Shown: one piece after another, positions 1 to 61,414 of the stretch
Layout: every line of letters begins with the position of its first letter
How positions within the stretch are numbered: the stretch's first letter is position 1
Source: Candidatus Enterousia sp.
Lineage (GTDB): Bacteria > Pseudomonadota > Alphaproteobacteria > Rs-D84
Length of the DNA: 61,414 bases
NCBI GenBank assembly: GCA_045536625.1
Contig: JAZSNY010000018.1
Coordinates: forward strand, 1-61,414
Direction: 5' to 3'
Position numbers and translations under genes: made by a program
The notes under the pieces: generated by a model
Databases searched by the model: none
What the model saw: the letters and a program-made list of their open reading frames with translations, nothing else
What the model was told of the DNA's origin: nothing

Positions 1-303
<303 letters not shown>

Positions 304-401
304 TTACATTTTTAAAAACTATAAATCACGATGTATAAAAAATCAAGACAGGCCAACAAATTTATTTGATTTATCGTATATTGTGGTATTATGTGCCCAC
401 T

Positions 402-746
402 ATGATACGTGATACAATAAAAAGACATGAAGATTTTGCCATGGGGCCAAATGACCCCGTGGGTAAGTGTGCGTACTTTCTGGTGCGGGCAAAAAAGGCA
501 AAATTCCCAGATGATGCACGATACGGCCTTATCGTCACAAAAAAGACTTTTAAACATGCCGTTGACAGGAATCGTGCGAAACGTTTAATCCGGGATTGGA
601 TTGCCTTTAATGAACATATGATGCGACCAGAATGGGATTACGTGTTTGTTATTCGTCGTGGAATACTGGATGCAGACCGTACGTCCGGTCGCGTCGCAAT
701 GAAAAAGGCCTTGAACTATCTGCGCAAACAAGAAATCAATGAATAA
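402..746 (+). CDS. rnpA: Ribonuclease P protein component
   Basis: Basic 114-aa protein with ...GLIVTKKTFKHAVDRNRAKRLIRDW... (RNR-like motif), followed by an overlapping yidD. Start moved to the internal ATG at 402 because the upstream extension is hydrophobic nonsense. Confidence 0.85.
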   Translation: MIRDTIKRHEDFAMGPNDPVGKCAYFLVRAKKAKFPDDARYGLIVTKKTFKHAVDRNRAKRLIRDWIAFNEHMMRPEWDYVFVIRRGILDADRTSGRVAMKKALNYLRKQEINE

Positions 747-975
747 AAAACAATCTTTATCTGGACGTGTGGCCGTTGCAATGGTGCGTGCATATCAATT
801 TGCCATTTCTCCAATCATTGGGGGCAGGGCCGCATGTCGCTTTGTCCCGACATGCAGTGAATATACGCGACAAGCCATTGAAAAATATGGCGCTTTGCGC
901 GGCGTTTGGTTGGGAATAAAACGTATGTCACGTTGCAGACCCGGTGGAGGGTGCGGTTATGACCCCATACCTTGA
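739..975 (+). CDS. yidD: Membrane protein insertion efficiency factor YidD
   Basis: 78 aa containing AISPIIGGRAACRFVPTCSEYTRQAIEKYG...CRPGGGCGYDPIP, the canonical YidD signature. Overlaps rnpA by 8 nt. Confidence 0.9.
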   Translation: MNKKQSLSGRVAVAMVRAYQFAISPIIGGRAACRFVPTCSEYTRQAIEKYGALRGVWLGIKRMSRCRPGGGCGYDPIP

Positions 976-1042
976 CAACGAGGGATAATGTGATACAATT
1001 TTATTCCATGCGAGACAGTTAATTATAAAATAAGGATAAAAA

Positions 1043-1486
1043 ATGTCATTTCGTGCAACCGTGGAGTCTATGTCAAAAATCATGGACGATATGGGGATTA
1101 CAGAATTGAATTTGGAACGTCAATTCTTGTTTGGTTTATATCGCAAACATATTCATCTATCAAAACAAAAAAACGCTGCGGTTTCGACGCCTGTTGCCCA
1201 GGTCGCAGAGGTAAAAACAATAAATAATGATGCAGGCACAAACGTGATTAATGGCCATGTGTTGAAATCGCCAATGGTTGGGGTTGTATATTTGGCACCA
1301 GAGCCTGGGGTAGATACATTTGTATCAGTTGGTCAGTCGGTCAAGGCGGGGGATACAGTCGCCTTGGTCGAAGCAATGAAAACATTCAACCCAATTAAAT
1401 CTGACAAAGATGGCGTTATCAAAGAAATATTGGTAACAGACGGTGCAGCGGTTGAATTTGATCAACCTTTAATCGTAATTGAATAA
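1043..1486 (+). CDS. accB: Biotin carboxyl carrier protein of acetyl-CoA carboxylase
   Basis: C-terminal biotinyl domain with [11 protein letters not shown] (EAMK biotinylation motif). Directly upstream of and overlapping accC. Confidence 0.9.
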
Positions 1487-2834
1487 AATGTCACAAATCA
1501 AAAAAGTTTTAATTGCCAATCGCGGGGAAATTGCCCTGCGCATCATTCGTGCGTGTCGCGATATGGGAATTCGTACTGTTGCGATATACTCAACCGCGGA
1601 CAGGGATGCAATGCATGTACAACTGGCAGATGAATCTGTGTGTATTGGACCGGCCCCGGCACGCGATTCTTATTTAAACGAATCTGCTATTTTGACGGCC
1701 GCTTTGTTAACAAACGCAGATGCAATACACCCGGGATATGGTTTTTTATCAGAACGTGCCGACTTTGCGCAAAAGGTCGAACAACACGGTATGATTTGGG
1801 TTGGACCATCGCCAGATATGATTACAAAAATGGGCGACAAGGTTAATGCAAAACGTACCGCAATTGAGTGTGGTTTGCCGGTTGTACCGGGGTCAGATGG
1901 CGCGTTGGAATCATTGGAACACGCATTGGATGTGGCCGAAAAAATTGGATATCCCATTATATTAAAAACAACATCCAATGATGGTGGTCGCGGCATGCGA
2001 CCGGTTAGCTGCGCCAATGATATGGCCGAAGCGTATCAATTAACAAAAAACGAAGCAAAATCTGCATTTGGTGATGATACGCTGTATATGGAAAAACTGT
2101 TGACGCACCCACGACACATTGAATTTCAGGTTTTGGGGGATAAACACGGCAATGTTGTTATCTTTGGTGAACGCGACTGTTCACTGCAAAGACGTAATCA
2201 AAAGGTTATGGAAGAATGTCCCGCCGCCATCCTATCACAAAAACAGCGCGACGATATGATTGAAGTCTGCAAGAGCGCCGCAAAAAAAATGGGATATACC
2301 AATGCCGGAACATTTGAATTTATGTTTGAAGATGGTAAATTCTATTTCCTTGAAATGAATACACGATTACAGGTTGAACATCCGGTAACGGAAATGGTAT
2401 ATGGTGTGGACCTGGTTCGGGAACAAATTCGTATCGCAGGCGGTGAAAAGTTGGGATACAATCAATCAAATGTTATTCCAAATGGTCATGCAATTGAATT
2501 TCGTATTAATGCCGAAGATCCGGAAACTTTTGTTCCAAACCCGGGCAAAATTACATTGTATGCACCGTCTGGCGGGTTGGGGGTGCGCGTTGACAGTGCG
2601 GTTTACACCGGATACACAATCCCACCAACGTATGATTCTATGATTGCCAAGTTGATTGTTCACGCACAAAACCGACCGGCATGTATTATGCGTGCAGGTC
2701 GTGCATTAGACGAATTTGTTATCGAAGGGGTAAAAACAACCATACCTTTGCAAAGAAAACTGTTGAATAACAAGGATGTAAAACAGTTAAAATTTGATAA
2801 TAAATGGTTGGAAAAAATTTTAAATAAAGATTAA
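1479..2834 (+). CDS. accC: Biotin carboxylase
   Basis: 451 aa with N-terminal [23 protein letters not shown], an ATP-grasp core and [14 protein letters not shown]. Confidence 0.97.
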
Positions 2835-2835
2835 C

Positions 2836-2863
2836 AAAAAGCCGGCAAACACCGGCTTTTTTT
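2836..2863. terminator. Bidirectional intrinsic terminator between accC and the mini-HTH gene
   Basis: AAAAA-GCCGG-caaaca-CCGGC-TTTTTTT; the stem is flanked by an A-tract and a T-tract. Confidence 0.7.
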
Positions 2864-3050
2864 ATAACAAAGATTCCAGAGGATGACGCGTTATGGATAT
2901 AAACATTACTAACTGATATATTGTGGGGTGTATATGATTGTAAATGATATTACGGTATTCTGATTCTGTAACCCCCATTGTATTACAGACCTCAATTACT
3001 GATAAATTTCGCAATGTACGAATATATTCAATTTCATGTCCCAAAGTCAT
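2862..3050 (-). CDS. Mini HTH (XRE/Cro-like) protein, copy A
   Basis: 62 aa, MTLGHEIEYIRTLRNLSVIEVCNTMGVTESEYRNII...PTIYQ. Paralogous to the ORF at 19150-19335 (shared GH-IE-IR...PTIYQ...PLE pattern). Start set at the second ATG, which has GGGGA 6 nt upstream. Confidence 0.6.
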   Translation of the reverse strand: MTLGHEIEYIRTLRNLSVIEVCNTMGVTESEYRNIIYNHIHPTIYQLVMFISITRHPLESLL

Positions 3051-3071
3051 TTCCATTCCCCAGTTTTTCTA

Positions 3072-3242
3072 AAATAAAAAACCACCTTGGAATAGGGTGG
3101 TTGGAGGTAGAAATCACGACACTTCGTGGCTCGGGTATTCAATGTATTAACCGACCTCCAACCACGGGTTGGAGCAATTAACGCCTGCGCAGGCGAGTGT
3201 GTCGCGAGATTTCTAGCCTCGCATAATAGGTGCCCTATTACA
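3072..3242 (-). ncRNA. Structured leader/sRNA, copy A of a 4-member family (ends approximate)
   Basis: Has its own promoter and the terminator AACCACC/GGUGGUU + U-run. Helices: UAGAAAUC..CGACAC / GUGUCG..GAUUUCUA and CUCCAACC/GGUUGGAG, followed by a 3' CCUCCAACC. Same architecture as the copies at 19358, 19572 and 61160. Confidence 0.55.
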
Positions 3243-3248
3243 ATCGGT

Positions 3249-3278
3249 ATTGTATCCCATAACAAATATCATTTGCAA
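3249..3278 (-). promoter_or_regulatory. Sigma70-like promoter for RNA copy A
   Basis: On the minus strand: TTGCAA (3278-3273), 18-nt spacer, TACAAT (3254-3249). Confidence 0.45.
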
Positions 3279-3300
3279 TTATATTTTTCTTTGTTATAAT
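3273..3300 (+). promoter_or_regulatory. Sigma70-like promoter for tRNA-Val
   Basis: TTGCAA (3273-3278), 16-nt spacer, TATAAT (3295-3300), ending 13 nt before the tRNA 5' end. The -35 hexamer is palindromic and shared with the divergent promoter. Confidence 0.5.
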
Positions 3301-3313
3301 GGGCGCGATTTAC

Positions 3314-3390
3314 GGGTGGTTAGCTCAGTTGGTTAGAGCGTTACGTTGACATCGTAAAGGTCGTTGGTTCGAGTCCAATATCACCCACCA
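3314..3390 (+). tRNA. tRNA-Val (anticodon GAC)
   Basis: Folded by hand into a 77-nt cloverleaf: acceptor GGGTGGT/ATCACCC, anticodon loop TTGACAT, T-loop TTCGAGT, encoded CCA. Confidence 0.95.
3375..3390 (+). repeat. attL-like direct repeat (inside tRNA-Val)
   Basis: 16 nt, with one mismatch to 11940-11955. Weaker similarity extends about 9 nt further upstream (GGTTCGAGTC vs GGTTTCTGAC). Confidence 0.6.
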
Positions 3391-3533
3391 TGAATTTTCC
3401 TTGAATTTCCATAAAAGTGTTATATTATTGATAAAAAGTCGCACAAAGCCAAAACATGCGGTTTTCTGGGCTTTTTTACACGTTTGCCGCTGTGAAAAAA
3501 TAGGCAAAATTTATTTTCATGGTGGTGTGACCA

Positions 3534-19044: not shown

Positions 19045-19120
19045 GCCGGTGTAGCTCAGTTGGTAGAGCATCTCATTCGTAATGAGGGGGTCGTAGGTTC
19101 AAGTCCTATCACCGGCACCA
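19045..19120 (+). tRNA. tRNA-Thr (anticodon CGU)
   Basis: 76-nt cloverleaf: acceptor GCCGGTG/CACCGGC, anticodon loop TTCGTAA, T-loop TTCAAGT, encoded CCA. Confidence 0.95.
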
Positions 19121-19128
19121 GGAATTTG

Positions 19129-19152
19129 TAAATCCCCGTTTCGGGGATTTTA
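19129..19152. terminator. Bidirectional terminator between tRNA-Thr and mini-HTH gene B
   Basis: AATCCCCG-ttt-CGGGGATT followed by T-rich sequence. Confidence 0.7.
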
Positions 19153-19335
19153 TATTTCCAATGGTTTACGCGTGTTTATAACAACCATTATCTGTTGATA
19201 TATTGTTGGGGCAACCATGCCCGTACGTATTTTATGATAATCCATTTCCGATGTCAGCCCCAGTATGTCACACATTTGATATAATGGTATATTTTCAGAA
19301 ATACGAATACGTTCTATTGCATGGCCGACATTCAT
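19150..19335 (-). CDS. Mini HTH (XRE/Cro-like) protein, copy B
   Basis: 61 aa, MNVGHAIERIRISENIPLYQMCDILGLTSEMDYHKI...PTIYQQ. Paralog of 2862-3050. Start set at the internal ATG that aligns with copy A. Confidence 0.6.
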   Translation of the reverse strand: MNVGHAIERIRISENIPLYQMCDILGLTSEMDYHKIRTGMVAPTIYQQIMVVINTRKPLEI

Positions 19336-19357
19336 TGATTTACCCCGCGTTTCCATA

Positions 19358-19527
19358 TAAAGAAACCGCATTTGAATTTCAAAAGCGGTTGGAGGTTAAG
19401 AACTATCCAAGAATAGTGCCGTTTATTTATATATATCCCGGCCCTCCAACCAGGGTTGGAGGTTGTTTTATGTCTTGCCAGACATCTTGGAGAGGTTCTT
19501 ATACCCCACACCGGGATTGTTCCGATG
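19358..19527 (-). ncRNA. Structured leader/sRNA, copy B1 (ends approximate)
   Basis: Promoter TTGCAA-17-TATAAT; helices UAAGAAC..CCAAGA / UCUUGG..GUUCUUA and CCUCCAAC/GUUGGAGG; 3' CCUCCAACC; terminator AACCGC/GCGGUU. Ends about 25 nt before the HTH start. Confidence 0.55.
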
Positions 19528-19534
19528 CAACTTT

Positions 19535-19563
19535 ATTATATTTACATAAAATACAAATTGCAA
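19535..19563 (-). promoter_or_regulatory. Sigma70-like promoter of RNA copy B1
   Basis: Minus strand: TTGCAA (19563-19558), 17-nt spacer, TATAAT (19540-19535). Confidence 0.55.
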
Positions 19564-19571
19564 CCATTTGA

Positions 19572-19747
19572 TAAAAAAACCGCGTTTGAATTTCAAAAGC
19601 GGTTGGAGCTCAAACACTATCAAAGCGAATAGCGGGCTTATTCAATATATTCACCACACTCCAACCGATAAAGAGGTCGGAGTTTTTTACGCCACTTCTG
19701 GCGCGCTTTGACGGGCGTTTGAAACCCACACCGGGATTGTTCCGATG
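19572..19747 (-). ncRNA. Structured RNA, copy B2, orphan with no downstream ORF (ends approximate)
   Basis: Same architecture with covarying helices UUCAAAC..UCAAAGCG / CGCUUUGA..GUUUGAG and CUCCGACC/GGUUGGAG. Terminator AACCGC/GCGGUU + U7 abuts the B1 promoter. Confidence 0.5.
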
Positions 19748-19754
19748 TAACTTT

Positions 19755-19783
19755 ATTATATTTACATAAAATACAAATTGCAA
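19755..19783 (-). promoter_or_regulatory. Sigma70-like promoter of RNA copy B2
   Basis: Identical TTGCAA-17-TATAAT, lying within a 70-nt segment duplicated from 19505-19574. Confidence 0.55.
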
Positions 19784-19961
19784 CCATTTGATAATTAAAT
19801 GTTTTGGGTGGATATCAATACTTGCATTTTCTGTAAATACGTTGTAACCTGGGGCGTGATGAAACAAACAACAATAATTATTATTAAATAATGGACACTG
19901 CGCTTTGGCGGTGGCTGGGGCGCATGGGCGCCCATTTTTAATATAAAAACGGAGTATAATT

Positions 19962-60879: not shown

Positions 60880-61085
60880 TGAAAAAGGTGGGGACCTGGT
60901 TAAAACCCAAAAGGGTGATGTTCCCGGAACCCAGGTAATGCGCGTGAAACGCGTGCGAATTTGTTGTAATTGTTTTTATAAAAAATAAGAAATAATAACC
61001 TGGTTCCCGGTGTCAAGCACCGGGATGACAGAAGAAGAAAAACAAACCTGGGGCCCGGGGGCCAAACAAGCTGCGGAATGACAAA
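60880..61085. repeat. Cluster of GC-rich palindromic repeat units (dispersed family)
   Basis: CCTGGTTCCCGGTGtcaagCACCGGGATGACA (60999-61030, perfect 7-bp hairpin), GGGGGCCAAACAAGCTGCGGAATGACA (61057-61084), and degenerate units at 60883-60935. Confidence 0.5.
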
Positions 61086-61124: not shown

Positions 61125-61153
61125 TTGCGTTTTGGGTTTGTTTTGCGTATAAT
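61125..61153 (+). promoter_or_regulatory. Sigma70-like promoter of RNA copy E
   Basis: TTGCGT (61125-30), 17-nt spacer, TATAAT (61148-53). Confidence 0.5.
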
Positions 61154-61159
61154 GGTCAT

Positions 61160-61304
61160 GCATTGGGAAACCGGTGTGGGGCGTAAGAACCTCTTAACAG
61201 AAAACTCCGACCTTGTTGGTTGGAGGGTTGTGAATATATTGAATAAGCACGCTATTACTGTTAATAGTTCTTAACCTCCAACCGCCTTTTGTGCGGTTTT
61301 TTTG
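61160..61304 (+). ncRNA. Structured leader/sRNA, copy E (ends approximate)
   Basis: CCGGUGUGGGG box; helices UAAGAAC..UUAACAG / CUGUUAA..GUUCUUA and CUCCGACC/GGUUGGAG; 3' CCUCCAACC; terminator AACCGC/GCGGUU + U7. An SD AAGGAGG follows. Confidence 0.55.
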
Positions 61305-61327: not shown

Positions 61328-61414
61328 ATGAGCATTGTATTGGTGGACAGCAAATATTTTGGTCAGTATTTAACCCGTGCGCGCAAGACCGTAAATCTGC
61401 GTCGCGTGGATGCG
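61328..61414 (+). CDS. Mini HTH-type protein, 5' part (runs off the right edge)
   Basis: ATG 5 nt after AAGGAGG. MSIVLVDSKYFGQYLTRARKTVNLRRVDA resembles the first helix region of XRE-family proteins. Only 29 codons are visible. Confidence 0.4.
   Translation, partial: MSIVLVDSKYFGQYLTRARKTVNLRRVDA

Follow-up and report, generated by a model that had tools for sequence, protein, structure and literature searches.

The contig of Candidatus Enterousia sp. analysed here (61,414 nucleotides; the whole stretch is called the window below) contains four repeats, units A, B1, B2 and E (Table 1), which are true copies of a structured RNA, so far undescribed, that belongs to gut bacteria with small genomes. 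Each unit is probably a self-contained promoter-leader-terminator cassette that controls the gene behind it via transcription attenuation, with a leader of the terminator/antiterminator type. The central observation is that one strand of a hairpin in the leader, P3, can pair with either of two identical segments, and that both pairings are kept by compensatory changes. The cassette fronts regulators and secreted proteins across Rs-D84, the uncultured order of Enterousia, which has genomes of about 0.75-1.0 Mb and is widespread in human, rodent, bird and ruminant guts (PMC12306168).

The four units had been proposed from the letters of the window alone (hereafter, the sequence-only reading). 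Covariance model R1, built from 37 diverse family members and run on the full window with filters off, gave exactly four matches, at the proposed places, with scores of 84-127 bits and E-values of 1e-19 to 1e-29; the motif CTCCAACC occurs 10 times in the window, as against 1.0 expected. A scan of species-representative genomes with the pattern CTCCRACC-N2-12-GGTTGGAG-N40-60-CTCCAACC found at least 118 loci, nearly all in gut or rumen metagenome-assembled genomes (MAGs), with the record titles Candidatus Enterousia, uncultured Alphaproteobacteria or 'Rickettsiales bacterium'; the hosts among the matches listed were human, mouse, chicken, sheep, goat, cattle, buffalo and deer. A metagenome scan with a pattern leaving P3 free gave 92 additional loci. 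R1 confirmed 115, 19 and 106 matches in the collected locus sets and rejected a few chance loci, and deduplication left 223 distinct units in related MAGs and metagenomes; this number and the family-wide percentages below refer to units among the matches listed, largely ascertained by pattern. Two loci of the genome scan (L074 and L094) were chance pattern matches rejected by R1, and the sole locus from the viral-contig scan (L120) was not matched by it.

The sequence-only reading had suggested searching related genomes with such a model, and had left open whether the family was new. Rfam 15 at gathering thresholds recognised only three tRNAs in the window and only tRNAs in 14 further loci. 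An E-value scan of positions 19100-19900 returned weak matches far below the gathering scores, the best being rliG with 23 bits against a cutoff of 55. Full-text literature searches with the motif strings and with 'Rs-D84' plus 'riboswitch' gave no relevant description. The family therefore has no Rfam 15 match and is taken as new. The locus of unit A (window 1-3393, including a gene for a small helix-turn-helix, or mini-HTH, protein) is syntenic at 75-78% identity with L066, L069, L032, L001 and L040, each of which carries a counterpart of unit A plus a mini-HTH gene; unit A is thus an inherited, orthologous locus. A contig labelled as an uncultured Muribaculaceae MAG (L024, CAZJGX010000002.1) has a unit scoring 97 bits and is syntenic with window 1-2830 over about 2.9 kb (74% identity); it probably stems from an alphaproteobacterium and was misbinned.

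From 5' to 3', a unit consists of a -10 box, the hairpin P0, a four-way junction (P1/P1b, P2, P3 and P4) and an intrinsic terminator. The -10 box is a perfect TATAAT in 99 of 219 units and matches at five or more of six positions in 199, whereas perfect boxes were found in 10 of 195 control regions; it stands at a fixed distance from the RNA, with a mode of 37-40 nt ahead of P1, or about 7 nt ahead of P0. The sigma70-like promoters that the sequence-only reading had assigned to B2 and B1 were both recovered. P0 is followed by a G-rich segment, usually GGGG. A 'CCGGUGUGGGG box' had been noted at this place; the conserved stretch is present, but it is actually the 3' strand of the covarying hairpin P0 plus the GGGG segment. 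Next come the 5' strand of P1 (P1-5'; other strands are named likewise), CCC, P1b-5', the optional hairpin P2, an A-rich linker (61% A), and P3, in which CUCCAACC and GGUUGGAG enclose a loop of 2-12 nt or longer. The 'loop' of P4 is GAAUA-N4-GAAUAA in 159 units. In five others (L018, L019, L024, L103 and L126 at 814-982), a short GC-rich hairpin between GAAUAA and AAAUAA takes the place of the N4 centre (UAUU of GAAUA-UAUU-GAAUAA), and thus the conserved purine-rich strands of P4 act like an internal loop capped by a variable element. Past P4 follow P5-5' (CUAU or CAAU), P1b-3', P5-3' (AUAG or AUUG) and P1-3'; after 1-2 nt comes the 3' box, CUCCAACC, whose AACC begins the 5' arm of the terminator, and a U-tract closes the unit. 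Terminator-like hairpins with a U-run were found 3' of 126 of 135 units, and in the window 3' of the box in all four, as the sequence-only reading had it.

Complete units also commonly stand in tandem: the 222 parsed units include 8 arrays of two to four, which account for 20 units, and L126 has four in a row. In the window, B2 and B1 form such an array of two, since the B1 promoter begins about 10 nt past the U-tract of B2. The first units of the arrays in L089 (6005-6163, minus strand) and L051 (3385-3536, plus strand) have a 3' box without a recognisable terminator hairpin and lead directly into the following unit's promoter; possibly they are decaying, or they serve as obligate read-in units.

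P0, P1, P1b and P4 covary strongly. On A2, an alignment made by MAFFT from sequence only, 92.1% of the cells pair as against 73.7% after shuffling, and cells with double changes number 231 as against 77; sliding the partner columns lowers pairing to 39-49%. In P1, 98.6% of the cells are paired, with 4-18 compensatory sequences per pair; one P1 pair occurs as AU 20, CG 8, GC 4, UA 4 and UG 1 times and is never broken. Compensatory changes are also seen in 7 of 7 pairs of P0 and 3 of 3 pairs of P4. The 115-sequence alignment, which was fitted to the model, gives 96.4% pairing cells against 74.2% shuffled. Tests that need no alignment (222 units) agree: P1 forms 6.92 of 7 pairs within a unit and 4.31 between units, with 110 distinct P1-5' sequences, and the longest complementary run for P1b has a median of 7 within and 4 between units. 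The pairings of P1/P1b, P3 and P4 had been read correctly from the sequence, as had the fact that the helices differ between copies and yet stay complementary.

These data bear on the view that the repeats are a DNA-level element, that is, operators for XRE-type or mini-HTH proteins, a mobile promoter cassette or a repeat resembling miniature inverted-repeat transposable elements, in which the helices would be by-products of palindromes. P3 is indeed a perfect inverted repeat in DNA with an unusually constant sequence, HTH proteins are encoded beside many units, and there are many copies per small genome, some in tandem. However, the spacing of the P3 half-sites (2-12 nt and more) would not be tolerated by a dimeric operator, and the sequences of P0, P1, P1b and P4 differ yet stay complementary with G-U pairs included. 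Furthermore, R1 gives the four window units 84-127 bits on one strand and 14-27 bits on the other, the orthology of unit A in several species points to inheritance and not to recent transposition, and no viral-contig match passed R1. Strand asymmetry and covariation largely refute the DNA-level view, which we regard as very unlikely.

Even less credible, and in our judgement extremely improbable, is that the regions encode small proteins or leader peptides, either the overlapping open reading frames (ORFs) of 51-85 aa or a short ORF starting at (A/G/U)UGGGG. Mechanically called ORFs do overlap the units, and many units have AUG, GUG or UUG before the GGGG segment; but insertions and deletions in helix lengths and loops shift any reading frame, NUG is absent in several units (...GCGGGG, CCAGGC, CGGAGC), and the pattern of change is covariation of paired columns, not codon-like. 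The sequence-only reading had likewise taken the ORFs over the units as non-coding.

The P3-3' strand, GGUUGGAG, has two possible partners, because the 3' box CUCCAACC is identical to P3-5'. In 217 of 223 units all eight positions of P3-3' pair with the 3' box, fully by Watson-Crick pairs in 205; the P3 hairpin is poorer, with all eight positions paired in 184 of 223 and fully Watson-Crick pairing in 141. The helix with the box (the antiterminator helix) has a ninth pair, formed by the nucleotides directly 3' of GGUUGGAG and directly 5' of the 3' box, which is G-C in 197 units, U-A in 18 and others in 8, whereas the nucleotide before P3-5' showed no covariation with the ninth position among the 223 units. 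In units with a variant P3, all three segments (P3-5', P3-3' and the box) change together. Such compensated variants are GGUCAGGA/UCCUGACC (L079, L131 and L157), GGCAGGAG/CUCCUGCC (L127 and L146, and L014 as UGCAGGAG with 7 of 8 paired), GGCUGGAG/CUCCAGCC (L180 and L193), GGUUGGGG/CCCCAACC (L133, L145 and L174), GGGCAGGG/CCCUGUCC (L099) and UGUUGGAG/CUCCAACA (L089); they came from R1 matches in locus flanks or from the scan leaving P3 free. On A7, a MAFFT alignment enriched for variants, in which counts refer to sequences and not to independent events, pairing reaches 98.4% in the antiterminator helix (27 double-change cells, spread over 5 of 9 pairs) and 97.0% in P3 (23 such cells, spread over 4 of 8 pairs). 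Thus compensatory changes keep both pairings, in at least six different helix sequences. By eye, no other conserved partner for P3-5' was seen in the variant units. The sequence-only reading had placed the 3' box before the terminator, which is correct, but the box is also the alternative partner of P3-3'.

The helix inventory drawn up from the sequence, correct for P1/P1b, P3 and P4, has to be extended by two short helices, S1 and P5. S1 is a GGG/CCC hairpin around P1-5', and P5 is a hairpin around P1b-3'. In unconstrained minimum free energy (MFE) folds of 195 units by RNAfold, P1 was present in 157, P3 in 184 and the terminator in 177. When the antiterminator helix was forced, at a median cost of 13.5 kcal/mol, S1 appeared in 132 and P5 in 157 of the same units. 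P5 covaries clearly (one pair is UA in 74 and AU in 32 sequences, and unit A has CACG/CGUG), whereas S1 covaries weakly (one pair is GC in 72, GU in 24 and AU in 15). For S1 the test without alignment was uninformative (2.44 pairs within a unit, 2.30 between units), with GGG/CCC nearly invariant and the register shifting; S1, seen to covary in the alignments, is therefore the weakest of the helices. The antiterminator helix should be incompatible with P1/P1b on geometrical grounds: with no more than 1-2 nt between P1-3' and the box, the junction-proximal end of P3-3' would need to reach the far end of a P1/P1b stack of about 15 bp. We read S1, which crosses P1, and P5, which crosses P1b, as features of the readthrough fold, although it is conceivable that they form a double pseudoknot with P1/P1b within one fold. 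In addition, GGGG:CCUC pairing with the 3' box appears in MFE folds and might extend P1; 157 of 222 units could form 4 bp or more in this way, but so could 43% of shuffles.

Together with the gene linkage described below, the anatomy of the cassette, the two covarying pairings and the thermodynamic preference for one fold are observed features, and we propose the following mechanism on them. The leader RNA would adopt two mutually exclusive folds, T and AT. In fold T, P0, the long closing helix P1+P1b, P2, P3 and P4 would form the four-way junction, leaving the 3' box CUCCAACC free as the 5' arm of the intrinsic terminator, and RNA polymerase would stop about 25 nt before the start codon. In fold AT, P3-3' and one more nucleotide would pair with the 3' box and take 3-4 nt from the terminator stem; P1/P1b would be excluded, and the small hairpins S1 and P5 would form instead. 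The downstream gene would be expressed solely by readthrough, because the terminator is too near the start codon for a second promoter. A putative effector, which might be a small molecule, a protein or another RNA, would shift the balance between T and AT, and could do so by acting on folding kinetics during transcription. For the terminated RNA, which is the abundant form, a role in trans is conceivable as well.

The gene behind the unit is defined by position and orientation. The next start codon lies at a median of 30 nt past the start of the U-tract. Of the longest ORFs in the 250 nt downstream, 84 share the strand of the unit and 24 lie on the opposite one, as against 65 and 45 upstream. 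No ORF was called for 22 units, mostly upstream members of tandems, units cut by the end of the locus, or units before an ORF with a weak Shine-Dalgarno (SD) sequence. The 113 assigned downstream ORFs comprise 19 mini-HTH genes (58-78 aa), 21 other XRE-type or HTH genes (12 small XRE genes with 'LVDxKYFG', six XRE genes with 'FQQVQKYESG' and three other HTH genes) and 73 others. Accordingly, XRE-type HTH genes make up 40 of 113 (about 35%) and non-HTH genes about 65%, and the coupling to mini-HTH genes, which the sequence-only reading had made a property of the family, does not hold beyond the 19. Among the 73 other ORFs, 54 have signal-peptide-like N-termini, and 35 of these have at least 3% Cys. 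Five secreted representatives (four long proteins and one 65-aa peptide) matched no Pfam family.

In the window, the distance from the U-tract to the start codon (3050, 19335 and 61328) is about 22-24 nt; an XRE-type gene is directly downstream of three of the four units, and B2 precedes B1. That an HTH ORF follows three units was thus correctly read, but the ORF after unit E is of a larger XRE class, not a mini-HTH of 61-62 aa: it belongs to the 12-member 'LVDxKYFG' class, which is mostly 69-76 aa and follows other units. A relative (L023) matches Pfam HTH_3 with 29.1 bits (E = 1e-6). The AlphaFold2 model of the mini-HTH protein after B1 has four helices and a mean predicted local distance difference test (pLDDT) score of 92.3, and Foldseek aligned it with C.BclI, SinR, DdrO and P22 c2 at template modelling (TM) scores of 0.73-0.78 and root-mean-square deviations of 1.5-2.0 A over 56-59 residues. 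Pfam HTH_3 gives the protein after unit A 16.6 bits (E = 0.0085), under the 23-bit cutoff, and Pfam gave no match for the protein after B1; a profile of 16 mini-HTH members matched an XRE-type HTH protein in the PDB with E = 6e-4. To judge from the modelled fold, the mini-HTH proteins are XRE/Cro-type HTH proteins, as had been suggested, with a well-supported fold and a weak sequence signature. A homology search with the 61-aa protein among 5.8 billion proteins returned only its own 9-member cluster, and an exact look-up of two window proteins found nothing on record.

A family of secreted peptides of 51-80 aa, ending in ...TANQTMAGTYTVSGTLIVPTPPLPSAE, is encoded directly after units in L015, L042, L113, L070, L072, L033 and L002, and the longer secreted proteins of L053, L086 and L118 have a common post-signal motif, A(S/T)xxYV(D/E). 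The 65-aa peptide and the L053 protein had no Pfam match. The K-D...M-G-Y motif resembles the N-termini of phage tail fibres.

Several observations weigh against an attenuating leader. By nearest-neighbour energies the terminator fold is the more stable one by about 13 kcal/mol, so that readthrough has to rely on a factor or some kinetic route. No ligand is suggested by the regulated genes, which code for XRE regulators and unannotated secreted proteins. Because most units were found with patterns that fix either P3 and the box or P4 and P5, the conservation figures for P3/box and P4/P5 are inflated. The CUCC of the box and the GGAG of P3-3' are constant even in the variants, a hint of extra constraint such as SD/anti-SD mimicry. 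Finally, tandem complete units with their own promoters and terminators fit multi-copy small RNA (sRNA) genes at least as well as leaders.

Some of these points lead to a different view of the product, namely that the short terminated RNA of about 165-190 nt is what matters: the units would encode multi-copy, trans-acting 'sibling' sRNAs whose CCUCC pairs with the SD regions of targets, and the position before a gene would be secondary or reflect a dual function as proposed for Brt1 of Bartonella. Sibling sRNA families in tandem are known, for example LhrC1-4 and CcsR1-4. The conserved own -10 box and intrinsic terminator, the arrays of two to four complete units, and the strongly favoured terminator fold, which should make the short RNA the main product, all suit this view; the retention of CUCC and GGAG in all variant helices is compatible with anti-SD/SD mimicry, and Brt/Trp is a published precedent (PMC5387305). 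An sRNA gene, however, does not require compensatory changes in three segments to preserve an antiterminator helix, nor a constant orientation with the start codon about 30 nt past the U-tract. Moreover, fold T sequesters one CCUCC within P3, and the second one, located between P1 and the terminator, may be paired with the 5' GGGG. The sequence-only reading, which took the units for stand-alone sRNAs, had not seen the switch; since the terminator/antiterminator switch is supported by covariation, the cis-acting leader is the better reading, and we consider the trans-acting alternative unlikely. T-box-like, ANTAR-like and leader-peptide mechanisms were rejected in view of the variable P3 loop length and the lack of conserved hexaloops and of a conserved ORF.

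A further reading can be put forward only tentatively, as a possibility that we would not call probable. The family may be a new class of RNA sensor that switches on, as one regulon, XRE regulators and secreted or surface proteins of Rs-D84; it could be a riboswitch responding to a small molecule or to a second messenger, or it could be what a dedicated antitermination factor recognises. The terminated RNA might add a role in trans, in which case the RNA would have two functions and an origin independent of Brt. Genomes below 1 Mb and a partner-dependent lifestyle leave Rs-D84 few other regulators. The cassette would be a major part of gene control in these bacteria, because it fronts many regulators and secreted proteins and has four copies in 61 kb. 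Its role probably includes how Rs-D84 deal with a host or partner. For RNA biology, the family offers a clean, well-sampled bistable leader in which both conformers are supported by covariation, and its more than 220 natural variants make it well suited to the search for a ligand or factor.

Table 1. Units, their parts and downstream genes in the 61,414-nt window
Feature	Position	Strand	Details
Unit B2, promoter	19755-19783	-	-35 TTGCAA 19783-19778, 17-nt spacer, -10 TATAAT 19760-19755; consensus scan, 10 of 12 consensus matches
Unit B2, RNA	19573-19747	-	R1 match 19599-19760, 127 bits; sequence reading; helices reproduced by both RNAfold states (unconstrained and antiterminator-forced)
Unit B2, 5' parts	P0 19747-19729; S1 19727-19713; P1-5' 19723-19717	-	S1 (GGG/CCC) encloses P1-5' UUCAAAC
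Unit B2, middle	P1b-5' 19711-19704; P2 ~19704-19689; P3 19682-19659; P4 19657-19632	-	
Unit B2, 3' parts	P5 with P1b-3' 19632-19617; P1-3' 19615-19609; 3' box 19608-19601	-	3' box CUCCAACC
Unit B2, terminator	19604-19573	-	Stem and U-tract
Unit B1, promoter	19535-19563	-	-35 TTGCAA 19563-19558, 17-nt spacer, -10 TATAAT 19540-19535; consensus scan
Unit B1, RNA	19359-19527	-	R1 match 19385-19540, 120 bits; sequence reading; CTCCAACC positions; two-state folds
Unit B1, 5' parts	P0 19527-19509; S1-5' 19507-19504; P1-5' 19501-19495; S1-3' 19495-19492	-	S1-5' GGGG; P1-5' UAAGAAC; S1-3' CCUC
Unit B1, P1b-5' and P2	P1b-5' 19490-19485; P2 19484-19471	-	P1b-5' CCAAGA
Unit B1, P3	19461-19444	-	CUCCAACC/GGUUGGAG; ninth G at 19443
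Unit B1, P4 and P5	P4 19442-19418; P5 19416-19403	-	P5 CUAU/AUAG; loop holds P1b-3' UCUUGG 19412-19407
Unit B1, P1-3' and 3' box	P1-3' 19403-19397; 3' box 19394-19387	-	P1-3' GUUCUUA; C19395 precedes the box
Unit B1, terminator	19390-19359	-	AACCGC...GCGGUU and U-tract
Mini-HTH gene after B1	19150-19335	-	61 aa and stop; SD GGGG 19346-19343; ATG 19335 ~23 nt past the B1 U-tract
Unit A	3076-3254	-	R1 match 3097-3253, 84 bits; sequence reading; orthologous locus
Unit A, 5' parts	-10 3254-3249; P0 3240-3224; S1 3222-3204; P1-5' 3215-3208	-	-10 TACAAT; S1 GCGAG/CUCGC encloses P1-5' UAGAAAUC
Unit A, 3' parts	P3 3174-3156; 3' box 3106-3099; terminator 3102-3076	-	Terminator AACCACC...GGUGGUU and U-tract
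Mini-HTH gene after unit A	2862-3050	-	62 aa and stop; 42% identical to the B1 protein
Unit E	61125-61303	+	R1 match 61148-61285, 114 bits; sequence reading
Unit E, 5' parts	-35 61125-61130; -10 61148-61153; P0 61161-61176; GGGG 61178-61181	+	-35 TTGCGT; -10 TATAAT
Unit E, middle	P1-5' 61184-61190; P1b-5' 61194-61200; P3 61205-61225	+	No P2
Unit E, 3' parts	P5 61252-61267; P1-3' 61267-61273; 3' box 61276-61283; terminator 61280-61303	+	Terminator with U-tract
XRE-type gene after unit E	61328-61414	+	MSIVLVDSKYFGQYL...; cut by the window end; translation

Transfer RNA genes adjoin two units of the window. That for tRNA-Val is divergent from unit A, and that for tRNA-Thr is convergent with the mini-HTH gene of B1, where a hairpin at 19130-19150 could terminate both (tRNA positions 3314-3390 and 19045-19120, both plus strand). 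Other loci also have tRNAs near units, for example L082, with a tRNA at 150-223 and a unit at 366-519. On the plus strand at 19438-19462 and 19665-19680, the complement of P3 and the A-rich linker scores as intrinsic-terminator-like (a hairpin and a T-run); such a site could stop antisense transcription entering the unit, or be incidental. Just 5' of unit E, window 60990-61075 holds GC-rich palindromic repeats, GGTTCCCGG...CCGGGATGAC, and similar palindromes were seen by eye 3' of some units without an adjacent ORF in L008, L026 and L037. They may be an element like the repetitive extragenic palindromic (REP) sequences.

Among known systems, the XRE/Cro-C1 domains (C-proteins of restriction-modification systems, the N-domain of SinR and P22 c2) share a helical HTH fold with the mini-HTH proteins, which are 58-78 aa long and 9-17% identical to most solved structures. 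Sibling anti-SD sRNAs, such as alpha-r14/'cuckoo' CcsR and NfeR1 of Alphaproteobacteria and LhrC1-5 of Listeria, are multi-copy, often tandem, and have their own promoter and terminator. The units resemble them in repeated C-rich motifs (CCUCC or UCCC) able to pair with SD sequences, and the Rfam models of these sRNAs gave no match to the units. Here, however, P3 ties up one of the two C-rich copies and the terminator overlaps the second, so that alternative pairing explains the repeat, and the units are strictly co-oriented with and adjoining the downstream start codon.

With riboswitches and other attenuation leaders the units share a conserved multi-helix domain followed by an intrinsic terminator, one strand with two exclusive partners, and a place directly 5' of an ORF. 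The features found in the units are those of an attenuation leader: a covarying domain, mutually exclusive terminator and antiterminator pairings, and no room for a separate promoter. Tandem riboswitches are known as well, in glycine and other tandem arrangements. The units differ in that Rfam has no match, the genes are those of regulators and secreted proteins and not metabolic or transport genes, and each unit has its own conserved promoter and many repeats in a genome below 1 Mb. Furthermore, the closing helix has about 15 bp, and the terminator fold is therefore far more stable than in typical ligand-gated aptamers.

The closest likeness is to the Brt RNAs of Bartonella, which are 194-203 nt long, genus-specific and located upstream of XRE-type (Trp) proteins of 108-152 aa (Tu et al. 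2016, PMC5387305). They occur in 9-34 copies per genome; Brt1-9 are 74-100% identical among themselves, most conserved at the 3' end, and were proposed to end in a terminator or riboswitch-like element limiting expression of the regulator (PMC5387305). The Brt family is also characterised by an abundant, discrete RNA of about 200 nt and by weak transcription of the gene behind it. Both systems have a structured RNA of high copy number in an alphaproteobacterium, placed immediately 5' of a small XRE-type HTH gene in Bartonella and, here, in three of the four window units and for 40 of the 113 assigned downstream ORFs. A protein of one downstream XRE class (L003) is 48% identical over 63 aa to a Trp-type protein of plasmid pBGR3; BLASTP found no similarity between the window mini-HTH and a Trp protein. 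The sequence-only reading had considered a distant relationship of the RNAs. However, R1 with filters off gave at most 9.2 bits (E of at least 0.36) on pBGR3 (NC_012847, L119), B. henselae trp1 (L214) and trp6/7 (L215), and the Brt regions tested had no CUCCAACC/GGUUGGAG motif; the upstream regions of B. henselae trp1 and of the pBGR3 HTH gene are confirmed as Brt by their alignment with each other. Furthermore, Brt is restricted to the genus Bartonella, whereas the units occur in Enterousia, uncultured Alphaproteobacteria and 'Rickettsiales' gut MAGs, and about 65% of them precede non-HTH genes. In the Brt regions L119 26540-26690 and L214 at about 1380-1500, a hairpin CCCGGAAUUCCGGG with a U-run is followed further downstream by a second CCCGGAAUA segment; this repeated strand, seen by eye, could permit an alternative pairing analogous to that of the units. 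With no detectable homology of the RNAs, the likeness to Brt/Trp is one of arrangement and not of RNA ancestry, and the cassette thus stands beside Bartonella Brt/Trp as a second, independent example of a structured RNA before XRE regulators.

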